Shown: one piece after another, positions 28,580 through 53,830 of the stretch | Layout of the letters: each line of letters begins with the position of its first letter | How positions within the stretch are numbered: the first letter of the stretch is position 1 | Assembly: GCA_049282355.1 (NCBI GenBank) | Contig: JBAPTW010000152.1 | Location: forward strand, 1,224 to 65,223 | Source of the DNA: Gammaproteobacteria bacterium | GTDB lineage: Bacteria; Pseudomonadota; Gammaproteobacteria; HK1 | Direction of reading: 5' to 3' | DNA length: 64,000 nucleotides | The notes under the pieces: generated by a model | Databases searched by the model: none | What the model was told of the DNA's origin: nothing | The model's input: the letters and a program-made list of their open reading frames with translations, nothing else | Translations under genes and position numbers: made by a program

Positions 28580-29455
28580 ATGAAGGGTGTCGTTCTGGCG
28601 GGCGGTTCTGGAACCCGCCTCTATCCCCTAACCCGTAGCGTCAGCAAACAGCTGCTGCCAGTCTACGATAAGCCTATGATCTATTATCCCCTTTCCACCC
28701 TCATGCTCGGGGGACTGCGGGAGATCTTGATCATCTCAACTCCCTGGGACCTTCCCAGCTTCCAGCGCTTGCTCGGCAGCGGCGAACAGTGGGGGCTCGA
28801 GCTGCATTATGCCGAACAGCCGCAACCGCGGGGTCTTGCGGAAGCTTTTCTCATCGGCCAGAAATTCATTGCTGGTGAGCCGTGCTGTCTGATTCTCGGA
28901 GACAACATTTTCTATGGCCATGGGCTTACCGAAGTGCTGCAACAGGTCGCGACACGTACCCAAGGAGCCACCGTCTTCGCCTACCGTGTCAACGCCCCCG
29001 AGCGCTATGGCGTAGTGGAATTCGACGAAGCCGGAAAACCTCTTCGAATTCAGGAAAAGCCCATCGCTCCACCGTCTCACTATGCGGTCACCGGCATCTA
29101 TTTCTACGACGATCAGGTGGTTGATATCGCCCGCTCACTTCGCCCCTCCGATCGCGGCGAGCTTGAAATTACCGATATTAATCAGACCTATCTCGACCAG
29201 GGTCAGCTCCAGGTCGAGAAGCTGGGTCGCGGTATTGCGTGGTTGGATACCGGCACCCATGAATCTTTGCAGCAAGCTTCGAACTACATCGCGGCTATCG
29301 AAGTGCGACAGGGGCTCAAAGTCGCTTGCTTGGAGGAAATCGCCTATCGCATGGGCTACATATCGCGCGAGCAGCTCGAATACCTGGCCGCTGAGCTGAT
29401 GCAGAATGGTTATGGCCGGTATCTTATGGAAATTCTCGAGGAGGATGAGACGTGA
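28580..29455 (+). CDS. rfbA: Glucose-1-phosphate thymidylyltransferase
   Basis: [18 protein letters not shown]...[17 protein letters not shown]...GLAEAF. Confidence 0.95.
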
Positions 29456-32620: not shown

Positions 32621-35071
32621 TCAGGCTTTTGGCTTGCGGCCCTTCGTTGTCGGTGAAGCTGCCACCTCTGCATCATCAGATTTCGTCTGCGCCACTCCGC
32701 TTGTCGGGGGCTTATCAGCGCCTTCTTGCGTCTCGTGGTCTTCCTTCAACTGCGACCGCAATTCAGCCAGCTCAGAGCGCAGCACTTCGACCTCTGCCTC
32801 TGCCGGGGTGTCTGCTAGGTGCTTTTGTTCGGCAGGGATCGCTTCCGGCTCCCGTTGCAGGACGATGCCGGCCAGTGGTGGCAATGTAATCGACAGCGAA
32901 TAGGGCCGGTCCATCCACGGCATCTCCTCGGCGATGAGCGAAACTCCACCGTTTCCAACATTGCTGCCGCCATAGAACTCCGAGTCGGAATTGAAGATTT
33001 CTCGATAGGTGCCGGGACTTGGTATCCCGATACGGTAGCCATAGCGGGGTACCGGCGTGAAGTTCACCACCACGACCAAGAATTCATTATCGCTTTTGCG
33101 CAGATAGCTGAGAATCGACTGTTGACCGTCATGACAATCGATCCAATCAAATCCTTGCCACTCGAATTCATAGCAATAGAGCGCCACTGAGCGGTGATAG
33201 AGCGCATTCAGATCTTTGACCAGCCGCTGTACTCCACTGTGGAACGGGTATTGGACCACGTACCAGTCGAGGACCCTGGCGCTGTCCCACTCCGTCCCTT
33301 GACCAAACTCTGTGCCCATGAACAGTAGCTTCTTTCCGGGATGGGTGAACATGTACGTGTAGAGCAGGCGTAAGTTGGCAAAGCGGCGCCACTCATCCCC
33401 GGGCATTTTATTGAGCATAGACGCCTTTCCGTGCACCACCTCATCGTGAGAAAAGGGCAGCAGGAAATTCTCCGTAAAAGCGTACAGCATGCTAAACGTC
33501 AGCAGGTCGTGGTGGTACTGACGGTACACGGGATCGTGAGACATGTACCGCAGGGTGTCGTTCATCCAGCCCATATTCCACTTCAGGCTGAACCCAAGTC
33601 CCCCCACATAGGTGGGACGGGTCACTTGCGGCCAAGAGGTGGACTCCTCGGCCATCACCAATACCCCGGGATGCTGCCCATGAATCACGGCATTGAGCTC
33701 GCGAAGAAACTCCATCGCCTCAAGATTTTCCCGGCCGCCGTATTTATTGGGAATCCACTCTTCCCGCGAATAATCGAGATACAGCATCGACGCTACGGCA
33801 TCCACTCGCAGCCCATCGAGATGAAATTCCTCCACCCAAAACACGGCACTGGAAAGCAGAAACCCGCACACCTCGTGGCGTCCGTAGTTATAAATCAAGG
33901 TGGACCAGTCCAAGTGCTCGCCCTGGCGCGGATCCGCATGCTCATAAACGGGCTCACCGTCGAACCGGGCGAGACCATAGGCATCTTTGGGAAAATGTGC
34001 CGGTACCCAATCGAGGAAAATCCCGATGTCATGCTGATGACAGTAATTAACGAAATAGCGGAAATCATCCGGCTTACCAAAGCGGCTTGTGGGTGCGAAA
34101 TAGCCGGTGCTCTGATATCCCCAGGAAGCATCAAAGGGATGCTCCGTGATGGGCAGCAACTCAATATGGCTGAATCCCAGGTCCTTGACATAGGGTACGA
34201 TCTGTTCGGCAAGCTCCCGGTAGGTCAAGAATTCGCCTTCCGGGCCTCTTTGCCACGATCCCAAGTGCACCTCATAGATTGACATGGGCGCGTGGAGCCA
34301 ATCGCGGGATGCGCGTTTTTCCAGCCACGCCTCATCGGTCCAGGCAAACGAGGTTTCATCTACCGCGATTGAGGCTGTGCTCGGACGCATCTCAAACCGC
34401 TGACCGTAGGGATCGGTCTTGAGAAACACCATACCTGAATTGCGGTTACGAATTTCGAACTTATAAATAAGCCCCGCCTCAAGTTCAGGTATAAAGAGTT
34501 CCCAAACACCACTGCCTCCGCGCACTCTCAAGGGATGTGCACGACCATCCCAGTGGTTAAAATCACCCACCACGCTGACCCGCTCCGCATTGGGAGCCCA
34601 TACGGCAAACCCGATGCCGGCTATGCCGTCCACCACTCGCGGGTGTGCCCCAAGGAATCGATAGGCATGCCAGTGGCGTCCCTCGTTGAAAAGGTGCAGA
34701 TCAAAATCGCTCACCTGCGGCAAGAAAGTGTAAGGATCGTGGACGATGTGCTCATGATGTCCCGCGTCCCGCCAAATGAAGCGATAGTGAGCAGGAAGCC
34801 CATCGGGATCACCGCGCCACTCGAAAATGTCGGTATTGGGAATGCGTTCCATCGGCAACATCCCCTCGGCGATGGTCACATCGATGCAGTTTGGGATGTT
34901 GGCCCTGACCACGATGCCATCGCCTTCTTGATGGCGACCGAGCACCTCGAACGGATCGTGGTGCTTCGCTTCTGCGATTCGTCGCAAGTCTTCTGTGAGG
35001 TTGGGAATGTTCATTCGTTGGATCTCTATTGTGTTTTCGCGCTGCTCCCTCTGCAGATGCCTCGAGAGCAC
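32621..35071 (-). CDS. glgB: 1,4-alpha-glucan branching enzyme with a 77-aa charged C-terminal extension
   Basis: GH13 regions [25 protein letters not shown] and SHDEVVH, plus a CBM48 segment. The tail [10 protein letters not shown]...[21 protein letters not shown]...KGRKPKA maps to nt 32621-32854. The likely true start is the ATG at 35014 ([10 protein letters not shown]). Confidence 0.95.
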
Positions 35072-38989: not shown

Positions 38990-40171
38990 ATGGCCGAAAT
39001 CTTCCATGCCTTAGCCCTGAACCTGCATCAACCCGAAAACAATCTAGCCACACTTTGGGCACAAAACCAAGCGGAAGCCCTGGAAATCTTACGCGCCCTC
39101 GATCGGCTCTCGAAGGTGCTCGCATCCCATGACGATCGCGCACAAGTTCATCTCGCCATCTCCGGCACGCTGTTAAACTCGTTGGCCAGTGCCGACTTCC
39201 AGGAGCTTGTCTCTGAGTATCTCGACTGTCACGGGTTCCTGCGGGCAATCCAAAACCGGCGGATTTTCGAGATCCTCGGTACCGCCTATTATCACCCCGT
39301 GCTTCCCATCATTCCGCCCATTGATTGGGATGAGCACCTTACCCGCTGGGTTAATCTCGCACGCTACCTATTTGGCCGCACGCGCTTTGAAGGATTTTGG
39401 CCACCGGAGATGGGTTTCTGCATGGAGCTCATTCCACATTTGAAGCGCCTAGGCTATCGCTACGCGCTAGTGGACAGCGAGCACGTCGAGCCACTGACGC
39501 CGATGAACCGAGCAGAGCTACGCTACCTTCCCCACATCGCCGAGTTTGGCGGCGATGAGATGGTGGTCATTGTGCGTGACCGAGAGCTTTCCAACGCCAT
39601 CTTAGCAGACATGAGCTGTGATCAGTTCCAAGAGACGGTCCGCAAACAGACGAGCGAATGCTCAGCACCGGCAATGGTAACGCTGTGCGCCAACGGCGAT
39701 AACGGTGAGCGGTTTCGAAGCGCCGATCCGCAGGTAAATTTCTGGAGCAGCTTTTACCTGCCACTGTTGGAAAGTAGCGACACCCGCTCTCCCCTGCGGG
39801 CAGTTTTTGTTCACGACTACCTGAATCGCTATGGTACTTACGGCCGCGTAAAGGTCGGACCCGGCGCCTGGAATACGCCCTGGCACGACGGCAAAGATTT
39901 CGTGCAGTGGACGGGATCGGCGGCACAGCGAGAGGCATTAACTCGCTTGGATCAGGTCAGCCAGGCATTCCACACCGCAAGGGCAAACGTGATCGGCATA
40001 AGGGCAGAGAGCGACGAGATTCGCCACCAGCTTGAGGAGGCCCTCCGGCGAATTTTGAGAGCAGAGACAAGCTGTCATTTTTTCTGGGGCGAAGCTTGGG
40101 TCCCGCGCTGCCACCGCGATCTGGATGAGGCCTGTGCCTGCTTGGAACGCGCTTGGAACGCGCTCCGCTGA
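38990..40171 (+). CDS. GH57 family glycoside hydrolase
   Basis: LNLHQP, GTAYYHPVLPII, FWPPEMG (nucleophile Glu region) and CANGDNGERF motifs, in the order typical of GH57. Confidence 0.8.
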   Translation: MAEIFHALALNLHQPENNLATLWAQNQAEALEILRALDRLSKVLASHDDRAQVHLAISGTLLNSLASADFQELVSEYLDCHGFLRAIQNRRIFEILGTAYYHPVLPIIPPIDWDEHLTRWVNLARYLFGRTRFEGFWPPEMGFCMELIPHLKRLGYRYALVDSEHVEPLTPMNRAELRYLPHIAEFGGDEMVVIVRDRELSNAILADMSCDQFQETVRKQTSECSAPAMVTLCANGDNGERFRSADPQVNFWSSFYLPLLESSDTRSPLRAVFVHDYLNRYGTYGRVKVGPGAWNTPWHDGKDFVQWTGSAAQREALTRLDQVSQAFHTARANVIGIRAESDEIRHQLEEALRRILRAETSCHFFWGEAWVPRCHRDLDEACACLERAWNALR

Positions 40172-40194
40172 TATTTGCAAGTAAGTGACACTTA

Positions 40195-40337
40195 GAAGCT
40201 GTTTTAAAAATGTCGCGAGCGTCGACAGAGCAAGGCGCACGGCGGCGAGAAACCGGAGTGTACAAGGGAGTACATGAGGATTTTGAGCCGCCGCGCAACG
40301 CCGCTATGGCAAGCGCAGTAATTTTTAAAACAGCTTC
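40195..40337. mobile_element. Complete MITE-like element (143 bp), reference copy
   Basis: Perfect 16-bp termini GAAGCTGTTTTAAAAA / TTTTTAAAACAGCTTC. TTA lies on both flanks (40192-40194 and 40338-40340). The right TTA is the stop codon of the debranching enzyme gene. The element sits between convergent genes. Confidence 0.85.
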
Positions 40338-42248
40338 TTAACCCTGCCACAGCGCACAACTGAGTGGCGGAAGCTCGAGCCGACCACCCGTGCAAGGGAG
40401 TCGGGCACTGGTCAGTCCTCCGGGCTCGAAGCGCTCATGGTCGGCAAGTTGCCGCCACTGAGTCACATCGATATCTTCCAACGAGAGATGGACCGTCTCA
40501 TGGTGCGGATTAATGGCGAACAACAGCCGGTGCTGTCCCTTGCTGTAATCAGCATTGAACAAGACAGCCATGGCTGAACCCTGGGCGGCACCAAAGTAGC
40601 GGAAATAGTCATCCGAGGGGGGAGAATCCAGGCGAAACAGCCTGCCACTTTCCGATAGGCGGAATCGTATCCAGCGTCGAAAGTACTCGTGCGAGCCGGA
40701 GAATACGAGTAACCGATGATAATCGATGGCGTTCTCCTCCGGCGCGCGATAGCTGTTGTTTATGCCTCGCTTCGTACGCAGAGTATCTTGCCCGGCGGAC
40801 AACATGGGTATACCTAACGAGCACATCAAGACCGCCAACATGAGGTGAGTACGCCGCCGATCGTTCGCAGTGGGGTGGTCGCCCCGATGATGAGGGTTTT
40901 CCGTGATCTTGTCGATCCAGCAGAGATCGTCGTGGGATTCCACGTAATTGACGCTCTGTGCCGGCCAGGCGCTCAAGTGCGCGAGGCTTCCGGCCATGAA
41001 ATAGCGCAGTCCTGCCTGATTCCCCTGTCCCATGATGTAGTCGCGCAAAAACTCGCGATAGCCGTCGTTCCAGGAAGCGAAACCGCTCGATTTCAATGCC
41101 AAGGCAATATGACCCCTGAAGCTCCATGGCTCAGCGATGAGGATGACTGAGGGTTTGACACTCTTGAGCGCGGCCTCGATTTCCTTGAGCACCTTGACGC
41201 CGATTAGCTCGGCCAGATCGAAGCGAAATCCATCGATGTCGTAGGTCTCAATGAAATGAATGAGGCTGTCTATGATGAGCCGACGCCCCATTGGGGTATC
41301 ACAGCGCAAATCATTGCCACAACCGCTCCAGTTGCTAAGGTTCCCGCTCTTATCGAGTTGGAAGTAATAATGCTTATCGATGAACAAGAGGTGGTTTGGG
41401 TCACCGCTGTGGTTGTAAACTACATCCATGATGACCGCTATTCCTTGGTGATGAAAAGCGGCCACTAAGGCTCGGAATTCCTCCACCTGTGAGCCAAGCT
41501 CCGGTACCATTGCATAGCTGCTTTCCGGAGAAAAAAAGTTCACAGACATGTAGCCCCAGTGATAGTCATCCCGGGAATCGCAGCCTCCGAACTGCTGGAC
41601 CGGCAGCAACTCAACGGCGTTTACACCGAGGCTGCGCAGATAGGAACCCTGCGCCTCTACCCATCGCTGCAATCCGGTGAAACCGAGGCGCTCCTCGTCC
41701 TCCAAGGGTACGGGCGCATAGCGGATGAGATCGCGAACGTGCGCTTCTAGCACCACAAGATCGTGCCAGCAGGGCGGTTGGAACGACGGTTCGTCACGCT
41801 TCAGGCGCCGCCGATCCCAGATGATGCCTGGGCCACCCGGTCCCACGGTTGCCACAGCATAGGGATCGAGTATCCGGAACTCACCGTCAAAATGGCTAAA
41901 GGCATCCTGATCCAATGAATCCAAACGATAGTAGTAATACCAACCATGGAGGTTGGCGGGATAGCTTGCCTCCCAAACTCCGCTGTCGAGTCGGCTAAGC
42001 CGCTGTACCTTGGGCTCCGGACTATCCAAGTGTCTGAAAAAAAATACTCTGACGACCGCCGCCCGCGGTGCAAAGAGACGAAACACGGTGGTGTCTCCCC
42101 TCACGGAGGCACCAAGCCAACGATCGCTTCCTAGCCTTAATAGCGCCCCGCTCTCATCGAGCAGTTCTGCCTGCTCAACAAGCTCGGACAGCGATATTTT
42201 CTTGTCCACCTTAGCTCGCTGGCGTTCGTCCATCGACACCTTAGCCAT
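40338..42248 (-). CDS. Pullulanase-type GH13 debranching enzyme with N-terminal CBM48
   Basis: DVVYNHSG, GFRFDLAELIG, LIAEPWS, VNYVESHDD. The ATG at 42248 (MAKVSMDERQ) has AGGAGG 9 nt upstream. The ORF track's longer start at 42269 is GTG. Confidence 0.85.
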   Translation of the reverse strand: MAKVSMDERQRAKVDKKISLSELVEQAELLDESGALLRLGSDRWLGASVRGDTTVFRLFAPRAAVVRVFFFRHLDSPEPKVQRLSRLDSGVWEASYPANLHGWYYYYRLDSLDQDAFSHFDGEFRILDPYAVATVGPGGPGIIWDRRRLKRDEPSFQPPCWHDLVVLEAHVRDLIRYAPVPLEDEERLGFTGLQRWVEAQGSYLRSLGVNAVELLPVQQFGGCDSRDDYHWGYMSVNFFSPESSYAMVPELGSQVEEFRALVAAFHHQGIAVIMDVVYNHSGDPNHLLFIDKHYYFQLDKSGNLSNWSGCGNDLRCDTPMGRRLIIDSLIHFIETYDIDGFRFDLAELIGVKVLKEIEAALKSVKPSVILIAEPWSFRGHIALALKSSGFASWNDGYREFLRDYIMGQGNQAGLRYFMAGSLAHLSAWPAQSVNYVESHDDLCWIDKITENPHHRGDHPTANDRRRTHLMLAVLMCSLGIPMLSAGQDTLRTKRGINNSYRAPEENAIDYHRLLVFSGSHEYFRRWIRFRLSESGRLFRLDSPPSDDYFRYFGAAQGSAMAVLFNADYSKGQHRLLFAINPHHETVHLSLEDIDVTQWRQLADHERFEPGGLTSARLPCTGGRLELPPLSCALWQG

Positions 42249-42290
42249 TCGCGCTAACCTCCTGTCCACCTGCCTAAATGCATCCGTTGA

Positions 42291-43130
42291 TCAGCCAGCA
42301 GTCGAGACATCCATCAGGCCGAGCACTTCACCCGGAGGCACCTCGAACAAACGCCCGGCATGACTTAACCAAACGGATCGATGGGCATCGTTTCGTACCT
42401 GCCCGGTACCCGACAAGCCCATGAGCGCCCTAGCCGCCGTCAAATAATCCAAGACATCGAGAGTCGTGGCATAATAAACATCCGGGTTCCCATGCAGCAA
42501 ACGGCAGAACGCCTCCAAATAATCCCAATCTTTAAGTCGATCGGCACTCAGAAAACCATCAAACTCAAAGCTGTGTCCCCAGACATAGAGCAACGCCATC
42601 TCCCCGGCGTCATACCTCAGGAACCGTTCTCCCAGTTCCAAAGCTTGGTTGTGATGACAAGAGGTAGTTAGTGTCAGTGGCCGCTCTGGAAGCCCGAACC
42701 ATCCCGTGGTGTGAGTCGTTCGGCCATAAGCAAGGTCGAGCGCTGACAAGCGACCCATGACGCGCTCGTCGTAATCTCCAAATGGGTAGGCGAAACCGCG
42801 CACGGGAGCGCCTACCAGGTCCTCAAGAGCCTTCTGATCGTCAACAACTTCTCGGTCGATTCCCTCATTTGAGAGGGTGGTCAGATCAAGATGATTCGCC
42901 CCGTGGGCCGCCACCTCGTGGCCTTGATAAAGTGCTTGAACCTCGCCCCTCGCGATATGGTGAGGTATCCCGAGTCTTCCTGAATTGAGATGAAAGGTTG
43001 CCCGAAGACCATACTCATTGAGCATCGCCACCAGCCGGCGATCGTGCTCGCTCCCGTCGTCGTAGCTCATGATCAGGGCTTTTCGCTTTCCTTTCGGAAA
43101 GCGCACAACGAAATTGGCTTCTGTCTTCAT
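42291..43130 (-). CDS. CE4 polysaccharide deacetylase family protein
   Basis: NodB motifs MSYDDGSEHD and HEVAAHGANH, so the metal ligands are retained. Confidence 0.8.
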   Translation of the reverse strand: MKTEANFVVRFPKGKRKALIMSYDDGSEHDRRLVAMLNEYGLRATFHLNSGRLGIPHHIARGEVQALYQGHEVAAHGANHLDLTTLSNEGIDREVVDDQKALEDLVGAPVRGFAYPFGDYDERVMGRLSALDLAYGRTTHTTGWFGLPERPLTLTTSCHHNQALELGERFLRYDAGEMALLYVWGHSFEFDGFLSADRLKDWDYLEAFCRLLHGNPDVYYATTLDVLDYLTAARALMGLSGTGQVRNDAHRSVWLSHAGRLFEVPPGEVLGLMDVSTAG

Positions 43131-43217
43131 CGGACTACAGAACTCCCCATCAGTCCGTTACGAATCACCCTCGCAGCAATGGGCATAACCGTCCGAGCGG
43201 CCATCGCTGAATAGCGC

Positions 43218-44261
43218 TTAACCAGACCGCAGAGACAGGGCACAGGCATCTCTTAGCAACACGCCATTGTCGAGCAATCTGTCGAGCCAATAATTCATAC
43301 GCTCCGCAAAATATTTATCCTCCCAATGGCTGAACAGGTGGGCATGCTCTCCAAGCGGTGACCGCCCCTCCTGGGGATGGATCTCAAGCAGGCACGAAAG
43401 GTGGTCAGCAGTCAGCTCCGTCATGGCCGCCCGCATCAGGGCACGCAGTCCCGAAATCCCGAAGATTCCAGCGAGGAGCTGCCGATCTTGATAGGGAAAC
43501 GGAATACGAATGTGTTGAAGAAAGCTCAAGTGGTCTGAAACGCCAAATGCACTTAAGGTCGATAACGGATGGCCGTCGTGCAAGTGCAAATGCAGAGGCT
43601 TGCGCAGCCGGGCCAGGCGCTGCACCAGCTCAACGACTGCCGCCTTTGCCGAGGCTACCGCCGCCTGCACCGCTGCGATGCGATCCATGAGCTCTGGACT
43701 ATCGGGACGCAAGGCGCAAACGTCATCGCCCTGCTGCTGTGCTGCATACGTTTGCCGGCAACAATGGATGGCAACGTGGGATACATCAATGGCGGCACAG
43801 ACGTGCTCTAGCGCGGCGGTTTGCTCAAAGAGTGTGGCAAAAAACTCCAGTGGGAGCCCCGCGGCATACTCCACAAACAACAACGGCGCCTTCGTGATCC
43901 CTTGAAGCCGTCGCTCCACCTCCTCGAAAGCCAATACCGTTGCCTGTGGCTGGGTCTCAAAGACTTTCTGATCGTGCACCAAGATGCCATAGAGCTCTCC
44001 GGCAGCGCAGATCGCATAGTCACAAATAACGCTTTGGCCGGCGTCGCTCAAGAGATCGACGTCACGCGGCAGATGGGCCGTAGAGGCTTGCCCATCTGGC
44101 CTGTAGGCCATCAGCATCGCCAAGTGTTCCGGGCTGTCCGGGTAGAGCTCGCCTCCCAAGCCTGCTTCAGCAAGGCGCGCCTGTGCCAACCGCAGCAACG
44201 CCTCGTCACCACAAATCGGCGGTTGAATCGAAAGCATGGCAAGGAGCTTGGGAGAATTCAT
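43218..44261 (-). CDS. Hypothetical protein with xylose-isomerase-like TIM-barrel (AP endonuclease 2 superfamily) ligand pattern
   Basis: The ordered motifs LFVEY, IDVSHV, HLHLHDGHP and LLEIHP match the E / D..H / HxH.D / E metal-ligand spacing of that fold. No closer family recognised. Confidence 0.5.
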   Translation of the reverse strand: MNSPKLLAMLSIQPPICGDEALLRLAQARLAEAGLGGELYPDSPEHLAMLMAYRPDGQASTAHLPRDVDLLSDAGQSVICDYAICAAGELYGILVHDQKVFETQPQATVLAFEEVERRLQGITKAPLLFVEYAAGLPLEFFATLFEQTAALEHVCAAIDVSHVAIHCCRQTYAAQQQGDDVCALRPDSPELMDRIAAVQAAVASAKAAVVELVQRLARLRKPLHLHLHDGHPLSTLSAFGVSDHLSFLQHIRIPFPYQDRQLLAGIFGISGLRALMRAAMTELTADHLSCLLEIHPQEGRSPLGEHAHLFSHWEDKYFAERMNYWLDRLLDNGVLLRDACALSLRSG

Positions 44262-44309
44262 GGAAAATGCCTGGGACGATTAGGGATCATCTACAGCGGG
44301 TACCTTTTT

Positions 44310-47300
44310 CTACGAAAGGCCCTGCTGAGGACGGCTCTGAACCAGGTAGACTGTGTTGTTCGCAATAACCCCCTCAACGTCCTGGGGCGAGCCAAAGCGG
44401 GCTTCCAGAAATGCGGCGATGTCAATAAGGCGAGCGCCGAGCTGCTCGGCGTTTGCCGCATCGACTGACCACGGTACCAAAGTGTAATCGATTCGCTCCG
44501 TCGTCGGTATCTGAGGGCCCGGACGCAAAGCGAAGCTGAAACTGGCGAGTCGCGTAAGCCGCGCCTGCCCCTTCTTGCGATCGCAAAGCAAACGATAAGG
44601 ACTCCCCGACTGCACCGCCGACGCCAGTGTCTCGCCGAGCCCAACCGCCAACTCCACAGCAGCTTGCTCGCGACTGCCGGTAATGGGATCGGCGGTGTGC
44701 ATGATGAAGGACAGCTCCGGGTGCACCATCTCTTGAACCAACACCGCCATACGCACCTGTTCGTGGGCAATGCCGCAGGCCATGCGGCTTAACGCCGCGC
44801 GCCACGTCCATAATGATGCCCAGACCGACCGCACCGCTTCGGCAAGCCCTTCCCGGCTAACGCCGATCACTGAGTCGTAAAGCCCCGCACCGGCAAAATC
44901 CTTTAGATCCTCGCCGTTGGCGCTAGAGCGCACCGCCAGCCGCCGATCTTGGGCAAAAAGCTCTCCGAGCTCAGAGAACAGATGATCCGGTATCGGTACC
45001 GTTCTCAGCAGTGCCCGTAATTCCCCGAGACGTTGTTCTTGCTCTTCGGACGAAGCCCTTTCCAAGGCCTGCTGAAGCCGCTGATATCGCGCCTCCAATG
45101 CAGGATTCAAGGACAAGCAACCCTCCATCACGCCAAAGGGCAGTACCCGCCCGCTGGGCGCCCGAAACAAGCCGCTTTCTTCGGCCAGGGCCAGTAACCG
45201 GCCCGCGGCGGCGGCCTTTGCGCCACAAGTCGAGGTTTCGGCGACCGGCAAAGGAAGCGACTGAAGCTCGGTGGCGAGAGTGGTCGCCAGTAGCGCAGGC
45301 GGAGCGACGGGCAACCGCTCGGCCGGGTGGGAATTATCCTCGGCTCGCTCTAACAAGAGTTGCTCGGCCGCGACGCTAAGCTTCACCCAACTGTTGACCA
45401 GCGTCTGGAATTGCTCCAGCTGATCGCGCGCATCGGCAGTTACAAAGGGCACGCGGGCCTGACGTGCGCGCACACCCAAATGGGAAAGATGGGGAATGGG
45501 ATGGGCAAGCAAAATACCCCTCACATGGCGCGGGATTTCCTCGTCTCCGTCCGCACGCCCCAGCAGTACGATCAGTGGCGCGGACGGTGAAGCCAAGGCT
45601 GCCAGCTCATCCGTGCGCACCAGCCGCCCGTAAGCCTCCCCGGCAACCAGCGTCTCCCACGGCGGTAGACCAAGGGCCGTTCGTAGCGCCGTCCGCGCCA
45701 TGTCCACGAGCTTGGAGAGCTGAAATACAATGTTGCCGCGAATATCCCCTTCGCAAAATACCTCGATGGCGTGTTGGGGAACCCCCAGCGCCGTGCCAAG
45801 TAAGCTCACCCGATCGGCAAACAACCCAACCACTTTGTCGCTGTAGCCCTCTCCTAAGCGCTGCGCCCGTTCCAAGGTCGCCAATAGCCGCCGAAGCTGA
45901 AAATCACTGCTCGGATCGAAGGCCTCTGACCACCGCGCCAGTTCCGACTCGATGACGGCACACTCCTGCGCTTCTATCTGGCTCAATCGAACATTGGCGA
46001 CGAGATAACGCAGAGCACTGAGCACATCTTGCCAATAATCGGTTATCGCGAGCGGCTCCAGCTCATTGGCGAGCTCACTGGTTAACACAAAGGCGTAATC
46101 TTCAAGACCAATGTCGGCGAGATGCAGGCGCTGCCTTGCGACACCCGTCACCGCATCCCGGTACTTAACCAGAGCTTGGCGCAGCTCAGTGAGCATCCCT
46201 AAGAGTACCCCACAATCCTCCAGGTTTCGTCCCGCAGCCGCTTTCCGATCGAGAAACGCACGGGCACGCTCGGCATCAGCCGTGCTGAGCGACGGTTGCA
46301 GCTCGAGCACCCGCTGTTCCATGCCGGTGGCGTTGAAAAACTCGCTGAGCTCTTGGTGAAAGATCTCGAACTGATTGACGAAATCAGGCGAGTAATCGCT
46401 GCCGGGCAGGGTGATCCTTGCCAGAATTTCCTCCGAAGTCTTGAGGTCCTCGGGGCCTGCGCAGCGATGCAGCTTGTTTTGCAAGCGGTGCTTGATCTCG
46501 TGCTTTAGCTCCTTCGGGATATCATTGCGGTGGGCGATGTCGCGGATACGAGTCAGCGGTTCGCGCCGGAAAAATTGATCGCTATGAGAGGGCAGCCAAG
46601 GCAGAATTTTACGCACAATCCAGGCATTATCCTGGGACTCCAGAGCGTCCAGCGCCTTTTCGATGGCGAGCGCCGCGCGGGCATGGTGATTGGGACGAAA
46701 GTGTCGCCCATCCTCCGCACAGGAAACCTCCGCGGTTCCCAGGAAGCGCAGATACGCCGCGATGGTGGCAAGCTCGCCTAAGGAAAGCGGCGAGTCTTCT
46801 CGTGTCAGGCGCTCGCCCACCCAAACCAGCCGCTCCCGCCAACTGGCGTGTCTCCGGTGAGCCGCGACTAACTCGGCGATGAACGGATCGCTGATGGCCT
46901 CGGGGTCGAGCGTGGTGCGGCTCGCAACCGCTTCCTCGGTACCGCCAGCCGGTTGCTCGGGCGGCGAAACCGGCTTTTCTCCAGTCACTGGTCGACGTTT
47001 TTCGGGGCGCCGTTTCTCACCGGCCCGCCCGAGCAGCGGGCGCAGCCGCTGCTCCGCTTGCAACAACAAATCGCGAGGCTCCGGCCACTGCTCAAGAATG
47101 AGAGCCCCGCTGAAGCGCCGCCTGCGCAAACGTTTGATGAATGCGCGGATCCCGCCATCGTTGTCGCCCGCCGGACCGCTGAAAACAGTCAGGTGACTAT
47201 CGGCATCGCCATAGTTCTCATGCACGTGGGCGTGAATGATCGGCACTTCGGGAGCCAGTTCATCGATATAGCGGATATAGTCGTTGCGTGTTGGCGCACA

Positions 47301-47840
47301 AAGGTTCGCATGGCCTAGATCCAGGCAAAATCCCACGTGCGCCGCACCACCATTGAGATGGCGCAGTGCGGCAAACGTTCGGTTGATGTCGTCAGGAGTG
47401 GTGTGCGGTGTGTTCTCGATACTGATGCTCACACCAAGCGCGGCAGTGCGGCGAATGACCGGTTGCAATGCGTGCACATAGCCTTGTGCTCCCTCGTCCA
47501 TGTACAGATGCAGATTAACGATATCAGCGCCGATAGAACGGGCGAATTCGAGGCTTTCCAGCAGTAGATTATTCCCGTCTGGCCAGAGCGGATTGGCTTG
47601 CCAGGGGGCGTGGACGCTGTAACGGATGTCCCGCGCTTCACCGAGTTGCCGGATCTCGTCGCGCATCGGGTCATCCATATCGCCGCTATCCCAGCCCGAA
47701 ACACTGCCGTCCTCATAGACTTTCTTATCCACGAACCACTCAAATGCATCGAACCCATGAGCGAGCGCGAATTCGAAGGGTTCCAGTGGGGTCGTGGCAG
47801 AAAAGGCTGTTTGGTTACCAATGCGAATGCGCCGAGTCAT
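44310..47840 (-). CDS. Phosphoglucan water dikinase (PWD/GWD3)-like protein with N-terminal xylose-isomerase-like TIM barrel
   Basis: N-terminus (about nt 47025-47840): HAPW, VNLHLY, ISIENT, CLDLGHAN, HAHVHEN, ILEQW. Centre: RIRDIAHRNDIPKELKHEIKHRLQNKLHRCAGPEDL. Phospho-His motif PHLSHLGVRARQARVPFVT (His codon 45480-45482). C-terminal nucleotide-binding domain: CGAKAAAAGRL...SSANGEDLKDFAGAGLYDS...VLVQEMV. Confidence 0.8.
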   Translation of the reverse strand: MTRRIRIGNQTAFSATTPLEPFEFALAHGFDAFEWFVDKKVYEDGSVSGWDSGDMDDPMRDEIRQLGEARDIRYSVHAPWQANPLWPDGNNLLLESLEFARSIGADIVNLHLYMDEGAQGYVHALQPVIRRTAALGVSISIENTPHTTPDDINRTFAALRHLNGGAAHVGFCLDLGHANLCAPTRNDYIRYIDELAPEVPIIHAHVHENYGDADSHLTVFSGPAGDNDGGIRAFIKRLRRRRFSGALILEQWPEPRDLLLQAEQRLRPLLGRAGEKRRPEKRRPVTGEKPVSPPEQPAGGTEEAVASRTTLDPEAISDPFIAELVAAHRRHASWRERLVWVGERLTREDSPLSLGELATIAAYLRFLGTAEVSCAEDGRHFRPNHHARAALAIEKALDALESQDNAWIVRKILPWLPSHSDQFFRREPLTRIRDIAHRNDIPKELKHEIKHRLQNKLHRCAGPEDLKTSEEILARITLPGSDYSPDFVNQFEIFHQELSEFFNATGMEQRVLELQPSLSTADAERARAFLDRKAAAGRNLEDCGVLLGMLTELRQALVKYRDAVTGVARQRLHLADIGLEDYAFVLTSELANELEPLAITDYWQDVLSALRYLVANVRLSQIEAQECAVIESELARWSEAFDPSSDFQLRRLLATLERAQRLGEGYSDKVVGLFADRVSLLGTALGVPQHAIEVFCEGDIRGNIVFQLSKLVDMARTALRTALGLPPWETLVAGEAYGRLVRTDELAALASPSAPLIVLLGRADGDEEIPRHVRGILLAHPIPHLSHLGVRARQARVPFVTADARDQLEQFQTLVNSWVKLSVAAEQLLLERAEDNSHPAERLPVAPPALLATTLATELQSLPLPVAETSTCGAKAAAAGRLLALAEESGLFRAPSGRVLPFGVMEGCLSLNPALEARYQRLQQALERASSEEQEQRLGELRALLRTVPIPDHLFSELGELFAQDRRLAVRSSANGEDLKDFAGAGLYDSVIGVSREGLAEAVRSVWASLWTWRAALSRMACGIAHEQVRMAVLVQEMVHPELSFIMHTADPITGSREQAAVELAVGLGETLASAVQSGSPYRLLCDRKKGQARLTRLASFSFALRPGPQIPTTERIDYTLVPWSVDAANAEQLGARLIDIAAFLEARFGSPQDVEGVIANNTVYLVQSRPQQGLS

Positions 47841-47947
47841 AGGAGCTATCCAAGCTATGCGGGAGTGACAAATGTTGCCGGCGATTGTACCTCCAACCCA
47901 CCGCGGCCACGACCATCCGCCGGCAGCTTCCCGTTACCCAAGGGTCC

Positions 47948-50900
47948 TTATAGCCCCACCTGGGGACGTGTTTGCACCACGTACAACTCCCCCTGCTGCA
48001 CGGCGCCTTCAATATCTTGCGCTGACCCCAGGGTTTGTTCTATTTCGCTTCCAAGGCGGGCGATCTTCGCCAGCAGATCCTGGCGAAACCCACGATCGCA
48101 AACCAGCGGCTCGTCGCAGTAGTCTACCAAGCGCTGGCATGGCGCCTGCGCCAAAAAGCTATCGTAGAGCCCGGCGCCGGCAAACCCCTCGAGATCTTCG
48201 CCGTTCGAGTCAGAGCGAAAGATGACTCCCTGGCCATCCAGAGCAATGCTCTTGCTCGGGTATGATACGGGGGATAGCGCCAAGCTGTCTTTGCGACAGA
48301 TAAAACCCAACGCCCGTCCAGGATAATTTCCCACCAGCGTCTCGCCCATGCCGACGACCACCTCGGCGAACAGCTCGTCGGTGGCGCCTGTTAACGGATT
48401 TACCGTATGGATCACGAAGGCATACTGCGCCTGCACGACTTGTTGAATCAATACCGCAAGCATCAAATCCTCGTGGGCAATCTTGAGCGTCGTGCGCGAA
48501 TAATAAGCGCGCTCGTTCCACTTTGATGCCCACACTCGACACAATGCTCGCCACACAGAGGTCCATTCGTTGTCCGGCAAACCTGCTTGCCTCCATACTT
48601 CGCCGAGAGCATCCCGAAACGCCGCCGGCGCCTCGAGCGCGAGCAGAGCCTCCCTTAACTGCGCTAACACGCGCTGCGGATCGCGCTCCAACTCGCCCAG
48701 CAGCTGCTCATAGCGCTTCGCCAGCGGCGAGTTCTGCCGACACTGCAGGATTTCCTCAAAGACCCCAAAGGGCACAGCGATAGAAGTGGGAAATCGGATC
48801 CAGCTCGATAGCCGGCCCTGCAAATCCACCAGGTGGCTAGATTTGCCCCCGACCAATTCGTCGCGGAATGACGCCGACCCGATCGCCCAGGTAGAGAATG
48901 GCCGCCGTCGCACCTCGACTGCGGGCCGTCCGCGCGGCGCCACATCACCGGGCGCGGCCTCTTGCGCTTCCTCAAAGGTAACGTCTCCCCCGGCGTTCAC
49001 GGCAAAACGCAAGCGATGATGCTCTAGCGCCTTTAGCTGCTCATAGGTGACCTCATCGAAGCAAGTCGCGAACAGTACATGGGCGTTTCGTGCTCGCACC
49101 GCCACGTGGGACACTAAGTCAGGGGTATCACGGGTGATCACGGAGGTAACCCCGTCCGGGATTTCTTCGTCGCCCGCCACGCGATCGCTGACTAACACGG
49201 TCGGCTCCGGGTAACGCTGCCCCTGAGCGTTCAGCAGGCTATTGAGGACACATACCCGACCCGCCGCCAAGGAGGCGGGACTGATGATCTGCCATCCTCC
49301 CGTGCCGCAGCGGGCTCGCAGCACGGGATCCAACCGCCGCAGTAGCGCCGACAACACGAACGGCAGATTGCCACGAATAATCTCCTCACTGAAAACCGCA
49401 ATGGTCCATTGAGCGACACCGAGCGCCTCTCCCAAAAACTCGGCCTGTGGCTGCAGACGACGATAAAGTGCATCGCTCCAATCACCGGTAACACGGGCAG
49501 CCCGGTCGGTGACACTCTTGACCTGCAGAGCCCAATCAACATCCCGCTCCCGCGCCCTGGCAAGGCCACCGAGCTGGCGAGCCACGAAAGCAAACTCTGT
49601 CTCGCCGAACGACAGGCCCATATTGTGCGCTGTCGTCGCCGCGAGCGAGGTCAGGGCCTGCACATCGACATCGCGTAAGGCCTGACGTTCAATGGCAGCG
49701 CGTAGCGCCTGCTCAAGTGCCAGATCGAGATAAAGCATGTCCCGCAAGACCCGCGGCTCATCGGTGGCATCGATACGGCGGGCAAGCAACTGACGGGTCT
49801 CGGTTAGGAGCTCCGCCCACCCCGGCAAAGCGCTGCTATCGGTAACACCCGCCCGCAATCGATTCAGCAGTTCTCTCGTGCGCTCGTCCAACCTCGCTTC
49901 CGCAGCGGCGATGGCAGATTCCATGTCGGTCCCCGAGTGCACCGAGCGCAGTAACCGCAGGAAACCCTGAAAATCACCTACCAAGCCTTGCTTCTTCTCG
50001 GCGTAGAACTGAGGGTCAGTTTTTATGGGACGTTCGAAGCTTGCCAGACGCTCCCGGCTCACACCACCGCGCTCCAGGGTGCGGTAAAAAGCATCCAGCG
50101 CACCGTCAGCCTGAAGAAAGGCAAGGTAGGCCTCGCAAATAACCACGTCGTCGGGGGTGGTATTGTTGTGCAGCTTCTGATGCCACTCTTCCAGAAAGGT
50201 ACCGTGCACTTCCTTGATATGGTGGCTATGCATGATGTTGAGGATCTCATCCCTGACCCGCTGTCCTTCCCCACCAGGACCAAGGGTGGTCAACATCAGC
50301 CGCACAGCGGGCCGACTCGTTGGATAATCTTTGTAGATACTCGCCAGGCGCAAGGTCAAGCGATCCTGGGCGTGCGCGAGCTCACGGGGTTGGGTGTTGT
50401 ACCGGCGCTGCCAGTCCAGCTGACGAATGGCCGAATAGCGCAGCCACGTATAGATCAGCGCCAGTGCCTCGTCATTCTCCTCCGCCCCCTCCAGCACCTC
50501 GTAGCACAGATTGAAACGGTGCATGAGGGTCCAAGACTGTCGCCCCGTCTCGGCGCCGATGATCCGCTGTGCGAGCTGTTCCAAATTCCCCGCCGCAAGG
50601 ATCTTCTTGCCGGCTGAGACCACGCGCAACCGCAGCTCCATGTCACCCCTATCCGCCTTAATCCAGCGCTCCTGCGAAGAGGCATAAAGCACGAACTGTA
50701 TGGCGGGGGGCACATTCGCCTTGGCGAAGCTCATTTCCAGCCAACGCAGCCTATCTTGATCGCGAAACGGCGTCTGCAGCGCCTTATTCTGAAAATCTCG
50801 ACTTCCTGGAGGCCATATTGTCTTCGGCGGCATCTGCCAGCCATCGTCAGAGCCCCCGACAATACCCCAGTGCAGCCACACGGGCGCATCGACATCGGTC

Positions 50901-51430
50901 ACGAAAACCATCTCCGTTCCGGTGTCGCTCTTCAGCGTTGCCGCCGCCAAGCTCTCGCCTGTGTCAAGGTGGAATGTTTGCCGACCCCAATCCGCGCCCC
51001 TGATCCGTCCCTCGATCGCTTCCACGGGGCTTGGGGCTTGCTTTTCGGCAGGAAGGGTGAGGCAAAAATCATCCTTACCATCCTTTATCCAACGCCGTTC
51101 TTCCGGCAGGTATAACACGAACGGTAAAGCGTTCCAGCTCAGCGGCCGGTCGAGCCGCACCGCCAGTGTCGCCCGACCCGGTGCACTCGGCTCTAGCGGG
51201 CTTTGCACCGCATGATGGTCAACAGCGACGGTCTGCGGCGGCCAAACCGAAGGAGGTGGCAGATGCCAGTTGCGATCCCGGTGACGCCGCAAGCCCCAAT
51301 GCAAGCAGCACGGCTTATCCGTTTCTATGTCAAAAATTAGGGTTAAATGCCGATCCGAGCACTGCTTGGTCACTCGAATAGCGATCTCACCGGCCCGGTA
51401 AGTTTTCTCAACCCATTCTTCATTATTCAT
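47948..51430 (-). CDS. Alpha-glucan water dikinase (GWD1)-like protein with two N-terminal CBM45-like modules
   Basis: Two repeats carry LHWG..W..PP..WPP and FVLY...ERWIK (about nt 50624-51391). Other motifs: EEWHQKLHNNTTPDDVVICEAY, the phospho-His motif LVSHVAVRARNAHVLFATCFD (His codon 49106-49108), and the C-terminal VGGKSSHL...DSNGEDLEGFAGAGLYDS...VLIQQVV. ATG at 51430; the longer TTG start at 51463 is possible. Confidence 0.85.
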   Translation of the reverse strand: MNNEEWVEKTYRAGEIAIRVTKQCSDRHLTLIFDIETDKPCCLHWGLRRHRDRNWHLPPPSVWPPQTVAVDHHAVQSPLEPSAPGRATLAVRLDRPLSWNALPFVLYLPEERRWIKDGKDDFCLTLPAEKQAPSPVEAIEGRIRGADWGRQTFHLDTGESLAAATLKSDTGTEMVFVTDVDAPVWLHWGIVGGSDDGWQMPPKTIWPPGSRDFQNKALQTPFRDQDRLRWLEMSFAKANVPPAIQFVLYASSQERWIKADRGDMELRLRVVSAGKKILAAGNLEQLAQRIIGAETGRQSWTLMHRFNLCYEVLEGAEENDEALALIYTWLRYSAIRQLDWQRRYNTQPRELAHAQDRLTLRLASIYKDYPTSRPAVRLMLTTLGPGGEGQRVRDEILNIMHSHHIKEVHGTFLEEWHQKLHNNTTPDDVVICEAYLAFLQADGALDAFYRTLERGGVSRERLASFERPIKTDPQFYAEKKQGLVGDFQGFLRLLRSVHSGTDMESAIAAAEARLDERTRELLNRLRAGVTDSSALPGWAELLTETRQLLARRIDATDEPRVLRDMLYLDLALEQALRAAIERQALRDVDVQALTSLAATTAHNMGLSFGETEFAFVARQLGGLARARERDVDWALQVKSVTDRAARVTGDWSDALYRRLQPQAEFLGEALGVAQWTIAVFSEEIIRGNLPFVLSALLRRLDPVLRARCGTGGWQIISPASLAAGRVCVLNSLLNAQGQRYPEPTVLVSDRVAGDEEIPDGVTSVITRDTPDLVSHVAVRARNAHVLFATCFDEVTYEQLKALEHHRLRFAVNAGGDVTFEEAQEAAPGDVAPRGRPAVEVRRRPFSTWAIGSASFRDELVGGKSSHLVDLQGRLSSWIRFPTSIAVPFGVFEEILQCRQNSPLAKRYEQLLGELERDPQRVLAQLREALLALEAPAAFRDALGEVWRQAGLPDNEWTSVWRALCRVWASKWNERAYYSRTTLKIAHEDLMLAVLIQQVVQAQYAFVIHTVNPLTGATDELFAEVVVGMGETLVGNYPGRALGFICRKDSLALSPVSYPSKSIALDGQGVIFRSDSNGEDLEGFAGAGLYDSFLAQAPCQRLVDYCDEPLVCDRGFRQDLLAKIARLGSEIEQTLGSAQDIEGAVQQGELYVVQTRPQVGL

Positions 51431-51498
51431 TTTGATACCGCCTGGGAACCTCAGGCAAAGCAACTAGGTATACCTCCAATGGCTTTAGGGATACCCCC

Positions 51499-51527
51499 TT
51501 GACAGGGCCATTAGCGTAGGATAATTT
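51499..51527 (+). promoter_or_regulatory. Candidate sigma70-type promoter for the phasin gene
   Basis: TTGACA (51499-51504), a 17-nt spacer, then TAATTT (51522-51527), about 50 nt upstream of the phasin ATG. It lies in the divergent intergenic region shared with the GWD-like gene. Confidence 0.4.
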
Positions 51528-51577
51528 GTTCTTGTTGCAGTGCAGCATTCAAACACAGACCATTGCGGAGCCCGGAC

Positions 51578-52069
51578 ATGCCTGAGAAAGCCCAATCCTT
51601 TAACCCGTTTGATATGAGCAAAGTACTCTCCGAATTCGACCCAAGCAAGATGATGAACCAGGTCACAAAGGCCTTTTCCGATTATAAAGTACCCGGATTA
51701 GATATGAGCGCGGTCATCGAACATCAGCGCAAGAACATCGAGGCGTTAACCACCGCGAATCGACAAGCCCTTGAGGGGCTGCAAGCAATCGCCATGCGCC
51801 AAAGCGAAATCCTACGCCAAACCATGGACGAAGCGGTAGCAGCGTTGAAAGATCTCTCCTCTTCCGAAGGCCCAACCGAGGCAGCCTCGAAGCAGGCTCA
51901 ACTCTTGGGGAAAGCCCTCGAAAAGGCGCTGACCAATATGCGCGAGCTGGCCGAAATGGCGACCAAATCCAATACCGAAGCATTTGAAGTCGTCAAGACT
52001 CGCATGACAGAAAGCGTCGAGGAGATCAAGCAACTCGCCAGAAAGATGCCCGGTCAACAGAAAGCCTAA
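51578..52069 (+). CDS. Phasin family protein (TIGR01841-like)
   Basis: MPEKAQSFNPFDMSKVLSEFDPSKMM...IEHQRKNIEALTTANRQALEGLQAIAMRQSEILRQTMDE, the typical phasin helical repeat. GGAG lies 7 nt upstream of the ATG. Confidence 0.8.
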   Translation: MPEKAQSFNPFDMSKVLSEFDPSKMMNQVTKAFSDYKVPGLDMSAVIEHQRKNIEALTTANRQALEGLQAIAMRQSEILRQTMDEAVAALKDLSSSEGPTEAASKQAQLLGKALEKALTNMRELAEMATKSNTEAFEVVKTRMTESVEEIKQLARKMPGQQKA

Positions 52070-52099
52070 GATCTCGCTTCTCAGCGGGTAAATTGATTT

Positions 52100-52129
52100 G
52101 GGGCCAGGCTAATTCACTGGCCCCTTTTT
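52100..52129 (+). terminator. Rho-independent terminator after the phasin gene
   Basis: GGGGCCAG-(9 nt loop)-CTGGCCCC followed by TTTTT. Confidence 0.65.
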
Positions 52130-52150
52130 CGTGCCGGGAAGTTGCCGGCA

Positions 52151-52180
52151 GACCAAGTGCAGTAGTTTTTAAAACAGCTT

Positions 52181-52181
<1 letters not shown>
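52151..52181 (+). repeat. Right-end fragment of the MITE-like family overlapping the pgi stop codon by 1 nt
   Basis: ACCAAGTGCAGTAGTTTTTAAAACAGCTTC compared with GGCAAGCGCAGTAGTTTTTAAAACAGCTTC at 59379-59408. Confidence 0.75.

Positions 52182-53830
<1,649 letters not shown>

Follow-up and report, generated by a model that had tools for sequence, protein, structure and literature searches.

The 64,000-nucleotide (nt) stretch of DNA analysed here (the window; positions 1,224 to 65,223 of contig JBAPTW010000152.1, assembly GCA_049282355.1, from a Gammaproteobacteria bacterium) contains three consecutive genes that encode two homologues of the plant starch dikinases and a protein of an unannotated family. 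All three genes and their features lie on the minus strand, and coordinates refer to the window. The most upstream open reading frame (ORF), ORF-B (47948..51430), encodes a homologue of GWD1-type alpha-glucan, water dikinase with 1160 residues, counted from an ATG at 51430. An alternative TTG start at 51463 would yield 1171 residues, but the ATG is more likely to be the true start, since the N-termini of the homologues agree with it. ORF-A (44310..47840, 1176 residues) combines a predicted dikinase of the phosphoglucan, water dikinase (PWD/GWD3) type with an N-terminal barrel (TIM barrel) resembling endonuclease IV (EndoIV). ORF-C (43218..44261, 347 residues) appears to be a free-standing, divergent paralogue of this barrel. 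An earlier reading of the sequence, hereafter the original prediction, had described two neighbouring minus-strand ORFs of about 1170 residues as a tandem pair. Both ORFs lie at the coordinates it gave, and every motif string it quoted was found in their translations. The two dikinase genes indeed adjoin each other, but the unit comprises three genes in the order B-A-C; ORF-C and the barrel of ORF-A had been missed.

The N-terminal region of ORF-B matched the Pfam family Ig_N_CWD1 in two stretches, corresponding to tandem modules of the carbohydrate-binding module 45 (CBM45) type (50636..51388; residues ca. 15–130 and 151–265; best match over residues 151–265, 1.4e-41), with approximate boundaries for the first module. 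These modules are followed by a central helical domain (residues 279–706; 49313..50596), delimited by phmmer alignment to the chains 9ha9_A and 9qvi_A, and by a phosphohistidine domain (residues 712–824; 48959..49297; Pfam GWD1_pHisD, 2.3e-35). The C-terminal PPDK_N nucleotide-binding domain (47960..48883) was matched by Pfam in two stretches (best 958–1034, 5.9e-28), its start at about residue 850 being approximate, and this region also gave partial matches to phosphoenolpyruvate (PEP) synthase and rifampicin phosphotransferase. A phmmer search against the PDB aligned residues 279–706 with the central domain of potato GWD1 (PDB 9ha9, 9qvi) at E = 2e-81, and over the columns used for tree building this potato domain was 41% identical to ORF-B versus 19% to ORF-A. 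Moreover, a check against real sequences showed that the central motif of ORF-B is common to potato GWD1. The candidate catalytic residue, His775, lies within 'DLVSHVAVRARN' (codon 49106-49108). Among 36 homologues, H775, R779, R781 and N782 of the phosphohistidine motif were invariant, as were H44, W45, G46, W55, P58, P59, W63, P64 and W114 of the first CBM45 module and H187, W188, W198 and P201 of the second. Judged by its sequence, ORF-B is a GWD1-type dikinase with the full GWD1 architecture, and its specificity for C6 is inferred by orthology alone. Beside the catalytic histidine, chloroplast GWD1 carries the redox-switch motif CFATC. At the corresponding position (residues ca. 783–790) ORF-B reads LFATC, with Cys790 invariant across the bacterial family. 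Because this motif retains a single cysteine, a redox disulfide would be impossible in ORF-B.

ORF-A and ORF-B are paralogues that share 28% identity (A431-1175/B391-1160, E = 3e-52). The dikinase part of ORF-A consists of a central helical domain (residues ca. 330–720; 45681..46853) with the PWD-specific motif RIRDIAHRNDIP..LK.EIKH..QNKLHRCAGPEDL, a phosphohistidine domain (residues 728–836; 45333..45659; Pfam GWD1_pHisD, 9e-20) and a C-terminal PPDK_N domain (residues 872–1173; 44322..45227; Pfam, 1.2e-37). In the PDB, the ATP-binding domain of rifampicin phosphotransferase/PEP synthase matched ORF-A with 6e-29. The candidate catalytic residue is His787 within 'IPHLSHLGVRARQ' (codon 45480-45482), and P783, L785, S786, H787, V790, R791, R793 and Q794 were invariant in 38 family members. 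Plant and algal PWDs carry an identical histidine motif. The central motif is common to four eukaryotic PWDs (Cucurbita, Porphyridium, Mesotaenium and Bryopsis) and invariant in the bacterial family; as a search pattern, it recovered 430 metagenomic relatives. An exhaustive search with residues 301–1176 of ORF-A against 1.84 billion cluster representatives returned bacterial barrel-bearing relatives and 47 representatives carrying CBM20, which were 34–46% identical to ORF-A. Relatives that combine CBM20 with phosphohistidine and PPDK_N domains aligned with ORF-A over about 850 residues at 35–43% identity. Eukaryotic PWDs recognised by source name in the CBM20 set were those of Cucurbita pepo (XP_023526016.1) and Porphyridium purpureum (KAA8496669.1), next to proteins from Mesotaenium and Bryopsis. 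Over 805 aligned columns, ORF-A shared 40% identity with the Cucurbita PWD, 42% with the Porphyridium PWD and 26% with the ORF-B family. The bacterial family itself is large, with more than 822 clusters bearing the same three domains (AP_endonuc_2, GWD1_pHisD and PPDK_N). We thus assign the dikinase moiety of ORF-A, by its sequence, to the PWD/GWD3 type; by orthology only, it would act at C3. ORF-A lacks CBM20, the N-terminal module characteristic of plant PWD, and we therefore speak of a PWD-type dikinase whose N-terminal module differs rather than of a plain PWD.

These assignments bear out most of what had been proposed for the two ORFs. The GWD1 architecture with tandem CBM45 modules in ORF 47948-51430 was recovered by the two Ig_N_CWD1 matches and the potato central domain, the phosphohistidine and C-terminal PPDK_N domains of both ORFs were found by Pfam, and the motifs named as hallmarks of GWD1 and PWD proved specific, those of ORF-A being common to the four eukaryotic PWDs and those of ORF-B to potato GWD1. 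The identification of ORF 44310-47840 as PWD/GWD3 stands for the catalytic part, given its 40–42% identity and its position in the tree described below; it does not extend to the N-terminus, where an EndoIV-like barrel is present instead of CBM20.

To place the two proteins, a neighbour-joining (NJ) tree of 107 dikinases was computed with 100 bootstraps, in which potato GWD1 was represented by its central domain only. The split between the ORF-B family with potato GWD1 on one side and the ORF-A family with the CBM20-carrying PWDs on the other was recovered in 100/100 bootstraps. Within the latter group, the eukaryotic CBM20 PWDs sit among bacterial barrel-bearing forms: monophyly of the bacterial sequences was obtained in 0/100 bootstraps and monophyly of the CBM20 sequences in 61/100. 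The central domain of potato GWD1, a single partial sequence, was found inside the bacterial ORF-B family beside a Gemmataceae sequence. This topology hints at a bacterial origin of the eukaryotic dikinases. A further PWD-type dikinase of 1205–1213 residues (P0453; a 28-member cluster on contigs of up to 603 kb) was positioned among the CBM20 sequences. Its N-terminus gave a weak Ig_N_CWD1 match and contains neither CBM20 nor a TIM barrel, an architecture that looks like a hybrid.

The N-terminal residues 1–270 of ORF-A (47031..47840) are predicted to form a TIM barrel. Pfam assigned residues 22–258 to AP_endonuc_2 (1.3e-21), and the AlphaFold2 (AF2) model had a confidence score (pLDDT) of 86.9. 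The nearest solved relative is archaeal MJ1311 (PDB 3wqo; profile E 1.6e-12), which Foldseek matched with 5e-13 and template modelling scores (TM-scores) of 0.69–0.73; the structure 6khy followed with 8.5e-11. After MJ1311, the fold neighbours found by Foldseek are nucleases of the endonuclease IV family, ketose 3-epimerases and 3-keto-glucoside enzymes, and at the profile level the best named matches in the PDB are EndoIV-family proteins. Putative metal ligands were mapped through alignments with three enzymes, namely EndoIV of E. coli (1qtw, chain numbering), EndoIV of M. tuberculosis and the apurinic/apyrimidinic (AP) endonuclease of African swine fever virus (ASFV); the mapping refers to alignment columns. 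Residues H77, H111, E142, D174, H177, H207, D214, H216 and E250 of ORF-A align with H69, H109, E145, D179, H182, H216, D229, H231 and E261 of EndoIV, nine positions that we take to be the ligands of its trinuclear zinc site. In all nine columns, the residue type is as in EndoIV and invariant in 38 family members down to 44% identity. EndoIV-type trinuclear zinc sites catalyse phosphoester hydrolysis, and they reportedly remove the 3'-phosphate from deoxyribose. From these alignments, the barrel clearly is a member of the AP_endonuc_2 superfamily and looks as though it holds a complete three-metal site. DNA is an unlikely substrate, because the barrels are genomically coupled to a glucan dikinase. 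The best NCBIfam match of the barrel was CbiR (2.5e-8), which NCBIfam names a phosphodiesterase. CbiR is a metal-dependent member of this superfamily and hydrolyses adenosylcobalamin (AdoCbl) to adenosylcobinamide phosphate (AdoCbi-P) (PMC7733943).

ORF-C gave no match in Pfam and NCBIfam scans. The family to which it belongs comprises more than 1012 clusters, none of which contains a Pfam domain, and all named members are 'hypothetical'. Searching its profile against PDB sequences returned His-tag artefacts only, and a Pfam scan of 40 relatives at E <= 1 produced three weak AP_endonuc_2 matches and nothing more. The AF2 model is a TIM barrel with a pLDDT of 96.3. Its top Foldseek match is the ASFV AP endonuclease (6khy; 1.7e-5, TM-score 0.52–0.59), followed by M. 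tuberculosis EndoIV and UlaE. Profile–profile comparison with the ORF-A barrel using hhalign gave a probability of 90.7% and E = 1.3e-6, with His, Asp and Glu ligand columns aligned. One deviation concerns D243-H244, which are adjacent in ORF-C, versus the D-x-H arrangement in the ORF-A barrel and EndoIV. On the strength of the profile–profile match and the aligned ligand columns, we consider ORF-C to be a divergent free-standing paralogue of the fused ORF-A barrel and thereby, if remotely, a member of the AP_endonuc_2 superfamily.

We then asked how widely this arrangement is conserved, using 90 loci with an ORF-A relative from genome and metagenome collections; some of these are near-duplicates, so that the counts are not independent. 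Where the flanking sequence was long enough to judge, 56 of 62 loci had an ORF-C homologue directly downstream of A on the same strand, at a median distance of 110 nt, and 39 of 55 had a GWD1-type gene directly upstream of A, at a median distance of 23 nt. Both genes flanked A in 28 out of 37 loci. The order B-A-C also occurs in distant contigs. Named carriers include members of the Gammaproteobacteria, Thiotrichales, Desulfobacterota, Deltaproteobacteria, Planctomycetota/Gemmataceae, Thermodesulfobacteriota, Riflebacteria and Myxococcota/Polyangia and a 'Methylobacillus' metagenome-assembled genome (MAG); the genome closest to the present one is a Gammaproteobacteria MAG with 87% protein identity. 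B-A-C is a conserved three-gene bacterial module, and the GWD/PWD tandem is widespread in bacteria rather than peculiar to this genome. Gene fusions link the same parts. Of the 150 best cluster representatives, 12 were dikinases that continue at their C-terminus into an ORF-C domain. Two of these fusions (L091 248-3997 on a Polyangia MAG contig and L092 6001-9900 from GCA_964623885.1) are complete internal genes without the N-terminal barrel; two others (P0370 and P0476) keep that barrel in part or whole. In-frame A-C fusions were not found among 66 loci, the fusions belonging to other lineages. The bacterial PWD-type dikinases examined therefore have an EndoIV-like barrel at either end, or one encoded next door in most loci.

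At the locus itself, the three genes begin a co-oriented run. ORF-B is separated from ORF-A by 107 nt and ORF-A from ORF-C by 48 nt; after 87 nt follows a gene of the CE4 polysaccharide-deacetylase family (42291..43130, minus strand; Pfam Polysacc_deac_1, 1.6e-22), and after another 21 nt the last gene of the run, which encodes a debranching enzyme with CBM48 and GH13 domains of the type I pullulanase/GlgX-like kind (40338..42269, minus strand). The Pfam and NCBIfam matches of the latter were all under the equivalog cut-offs. The CE4 gene was considered as a member of the module and rejected, since just one of the 90 loci has such a gene in the vicinity of A. A terminator-like hairpin followed by a T-run lies 3' of the debranching gene (40211..40227, minus strand), found by a consensus scan. 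In this promoter and terminator scan of 40000-52200 the counts did not exceed those in shuffled sequence; the hairpin alone was noteworthy, and it is therefore weak evidence. Rfam and tRNA scans of the window gave no matches. As the original prediction had stated, the dikinases are co-oriented with a debranching enzyme in a glycogen gene cluster: besides the pullulanase/GlgX-like gene, the window encodes GlgC, GlgA, MalQ and two GlgB proteins, together with PGI, GH57, GH13 amylase-like and GH31 proteins. Within 10 kb of A, the 90 loci contained GlgA in 30 cases, a GH13 amylase-like gene in 20, a debranching gene in 10 and a branching gene in 10.

Several neighbours deserve mention in their own right. 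One GlgB (5136-8795, minus strand) is unusually long at 1219 residues and has repeated N-terminal modules, with three stretches of CBM_48 and four of GlgB_N matched by Pfam before the GH13 catalytic domain; the second (32621-35071) is an ordinary protein of 816 residues. The GH31 alpha-glucosidase gene (26001-28328) is followed by dTDP-rhamnose-type genes (28580-31391). Upstream of the dikinase operon and divergent from it lies a gene for a phasin, a polyhydroxyalkanoate (PHA) granule protein (51563-52069, plus strand). Given this gene, the organism probably stores PHA as well as glucan; as a module member, phasin was rejected, being found near A homologues in 2 of 90 loci. A Halogen_Hydrol (PF10112) gene is located at 576-1409 (minus strand), and on contig L007 (1709-3749) Halogen_Hydrol, TelA and a Band_7 protein are encoded ca. 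3–5 kb upstream of the GWD1/PWD pair, which may be a coincidence. Recent horizontal acquisition of the operon found no compositional support, the GC content being 54–60% throughout and 59–60% over the dikinases.

Taken together, we regard it with moderate confidence as the best account of the locus that it represents a conserved bacterial module for the ATP-dependent phosphorylation, and probably dephosphorylation, of a storage alpha-glucan, with the barrels as candidate phosphoglucan phosphatases. It builds on observed sequence homology and domain architecture, on the conservation of catalytic and ligand residues, and on the linkage and fusion of the genes. That the substrate is a glucan, at which positions and in what order the enzymes act on it, and that the barrels are phosphatases are inferences from these observations. 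The further proposals of the original prediction, an insoluble or semicrystalline substrate and a reversible phosphorylation, may be right, but the candidate phosphoesterase barrels and the glucan genes nearby lend them indirect support only. Plant GWD1 esterifies glucans at C6; plant PWD modifies C3 and acts on glucan that GWD has phosphorylated before. In the proposed scheme, ORF-B would bind the glucan through its two CBM45 modules. His775 would receive the beta-phosphate of ATP at the C-terminal nucleotide-binding domain, swing to the central domain and esterify a glucosyl residue, and ORF-A would perform the same swivelling-histidine chemistry through His787. We adopted this mechanism from GWD, where the histidine domain carries the beta-phosphate from the ATP domain to the central domain and then to the glucan (PMC13553574). 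The barrels at the N-terminus of ORF-A and in ORF-C might hydrolyse the glucan phosphate esters as the counterpart of plant SEX4 and LSF2, and the debranching enzyme encoded nearby, together with MalQ and other glucan-degrading enzymes, could then trim the loosened phosphorylated chains. The barrels are proposed as phosphoglucan phosphatases because they have the full EndoIV ligand set, because CbiR sets a precedent and because the window lacks a phosphatase of the dual-specificity (DSP) type, for which no family match was found in ORF-A, ORF-C or the other scanned window ORFs. Still, the phosphatase role of the barrels is the weakest link of the model.

A number of points weigh against this account. 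Substrate and regiospecificity rest on homology at 40% identity, and the tree was calculated by NJ alone with potato GWD1 entered as its central domain only. Pfam detected no CBM_20 in ORF-A, where AP_endonuc_2 fills residues 22–258; the eukaryotic relatives do carry CBM_20. Glycogen phosphorylase (GT35) was not seen among the 43 window ORFs of at least 200 residues, a few listed ORFs below 400 residues being unscanned. B is not next to A in 16 of 55 loci, and two Desulfobacterota loci (L004 and L005) have A and C only within the fetched flank. As for the barrels, the xylose-isomerase-like superfamily is functionally very diverse, MJ1311 as the closest solved relative is without an assigned function, and ketose 3-epimerases and 3-keto-glucoside enzymes score close to EndoIV in the fold search. 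Finally, fusing a dikinase to a phosphatase that removes the phosphate just added would seem futile, unless each of the two acts on glucan in a different physical state.

In a first alternative, the dikinases work as proposed but the barrels are not hydrolytic. They would instead bind or 'read' the glucan in place of CBM20, for instance through a metal cluster that grips a pre-existing phosphate ester or a glucosyl residue and thereby targets the PWD-type enzyme to glucan phosphorylated by ORF-B. The ORF-A barrel indeed occupies the exact position of the CBM20 in plant PWD, and the fusion variants always have a barrel on the dikinase, be it N- or C-terminal. Plant PWD, moreover, requires a pre-phosphorylated glucan (PMC13011383, PMC12892837). 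We nevertheless consider this explanation unlikely, for nine metal ligands that stay strictly invariant while the sequences diverge by about 40% are typical of a catalytic site, and the second, free barrel (ORF-C) beside the fused one in 90% of loci would be left unexplained. In a second alternative, the barrels would catalyse sugar reactions typical of other xylose-isomerase-like proteins (epimerisation, isomerisation, dehydration or lyase cleavage of keto-sugars, for instance) on a glucan residue or a released sugar phosphate, and the module would make or degrade a chemically modified glucan instead of cycling phosphate. In the Foldseek search, the ORF-A barrel resembled D-psicose/D-tagatose 3-epimerases, the C-glycoside deglycosidase DgpB-C and a 3-keto-glucoside 1,2-lyase with E-values of about 1e-10 to 4e-8. 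For ORF-C, UlaE ranked among the best matches, and 3wqo, the solved structure closest to the ORF-A barrel, bears the name 'D-tagatose 3-epimerase-like'. Ketose 3-epimerases, however, have one metal with four ligands; the barrels in addition keep five further residues, those that form metal sites 1 and 3 of EndoIV, and EndoIV-family proteins are the best named profile matches after MJ1311. Sugar chemistry therefore strikes us as improbable, a step further down than a binding role.

Both alternatives leave the dikinases acting on glucan. A more radical one holds that ORF-A and ORF-B are swivelling-histidine phosphotransferases for something other than a storage glucan, either another polysaccharide or a small molecule (compare rifampicin phosphotransferase or PigC/RedH), and that their likeness to GWD and PWD reflects ancestry only. 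In its favour, NCBIfam gives only partial matches to PEP synthase, rifamycin phosphotransferase and PigC/RedH, the PGAP names of family members are generic, and 60 of the 90 loci have no GlgA within 10 kb. Yet these NCBIfam matches are limited to the nucleotide-binding domain and, with 130 bits versus cut-offs of 866–1700, far too low, the glucan-specific parts (tandem CBM45, GWD1 central domain and plant-identical PWD central motifs) are kept, and the recurrent neighbours are glucan genes, so we regard this option as very improbable. An outright identity as PEP synthase, pyruvate phosphate dikinase (PPDK) or rifampicin phosphotransferase, which the original prediction had named as a case that would overturn it, was rejected: only the ATP-binding domain matches, with at most 137 bits versus NCBIfam cut-offs of 456–1700, and Pfam revealed neither a PEP-utilizer nor a TIM-type PEP-binding domain in ORF-A or ORF-B.

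The homology of the bacterial proteins to GWD and PWD is already implicit in databases, since the annotation of IMG, based on KEGG Orthology (KO), labels such genes 'alpha-glucan, water dikinase' and 'phosphoglucan, water dikinase'. PGAP uses the names 'TIM barrel protein' and 'PEP/pyruvate-binding domain-containing protein', and NCBIfam has no model for full-length ORF-A or ORF-B. A published description of bacterial GWD/PWD, of the barrel fusion or of the ORF-C family was not found in the open-access literature; subscription journals were mostly outside this scope, and an earlier mention is possible there. In the work we consulted, starch phosphorylation is treated as a plant and algal process (PMC13011383, PMC13553574, PMC12892837), glucan phosphorylation by GWD/PWD is derived from the eukaryotic host (PMC8703398), and phosphorylation of bacterial glycogen is a matter of speculation (PMC13011383). 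Our findings suggest that storage-glucan phosphorylation is not confined to plants and algae, and a conserved bacterial GWD1-PWD module would revise this picture. It points to particular enzymes as candidates for introducing phosphate into bacterial polyglucans and supplies small, soluble and intron-free models for dikinases that have so far been structurally difficult, and it turns the origin of the starch-phosphorylation machinery into a question. The barrel partners, too, are a family of more than 1,000 clusters now labelled 'hypothetical'. Should the barrels prove to be phosphatases, glucan dephosphorylation would have been solved a second time by unrelated proteins, a finding relevant to starch engineering and to Lafora-type glycogen biology. 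Going further, one may imagine that the barrels constitute a new metal-dependent class of phosphoglucan phosphatases, that many bacteria run a full GWD/PWD/phosphatase cycle, and that the eukaryotic dikinases, PWD at least, descend from this module after a swap of the barrel for CBM20; we offer this extended scenario tentatively and hold it to be doubtful.

The description that fits the locus best is that of a starch phosphorylation system in a bacterial version, which includes partner proteins of a new kind. Like GWD1 of potato and Arabidopsis (EC 2.7.9.4; R1/StGWD1 and SEX1, respectively), ORF-B is built from five parts in the same succession (CBM45, CBM45, central helical, phosphohistidine and ATP-binding domain), and the two N-terminal CBM45 modules are part of the definition of the GWD1 family (PMC6243121). 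Common to both are the motif EEWHQKLHNNT.PDDV and the histidine motif VSHVAVRARN. Unlike the plant enzyme, ORF-B is bacterial, cytoplasmic and without a transit peptide, its gene shares an operon with a PWD-type gene, and with about 1160 residues it is shorter than potato GWD1, whose mature numbering reaches at least residue 1387 (PMC13553574). Residues ca. 320–1176 of ORF-A have the central motif and the PHLSHLGVRARQ histidine motif in common with PWD/GWD3 (EC 2.7.9.5), but in place of the CBM20 of plant PWD a barrel is found at the N-terminus, and in some bacterial lineages an ORF-C-type barrel at the C-terminus.

With EndoIV (Nfo) and the AP_endonuc_2 superfamily, including MJ1311 and CbiR, the ORF-A barrel and ORF-C share the TIM-barrel fold, and the nine EndoIV metal-ligand positions are kept in the ORF-A barrel and MJ1311 and approximately in ORF-C. 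CbiR illustrates that metal-dependent hydrolases acting on non-DNA substrates exist in this superfamily (PMC7733943). Similarity to the superfamily is low (11–20% identity, TM-scores 0.5–0.7), ORF-C being too divergent for Pfam and bearing a long helical insertion at residues ca. 160–220, and unlike EndoIV the barrels either form part of a glucan dikinase or are genetically coupled to one. The role we propose for them is that of SEX4, LSF2 and laforin, namely removal of C6 and C3 phosphate to enable glucan degradation (PMC6243121, PMC12892837). As in plants, two phosphatase-type proteins would accompany two dikinases. SEX4, LSF2 and laforin, however, have the cysteine-dependent DSP fold, whereas the barrels are unrelated, metal-dependent TIM barrels; the shared role would thus be one of analogy, not of membership in the same family.

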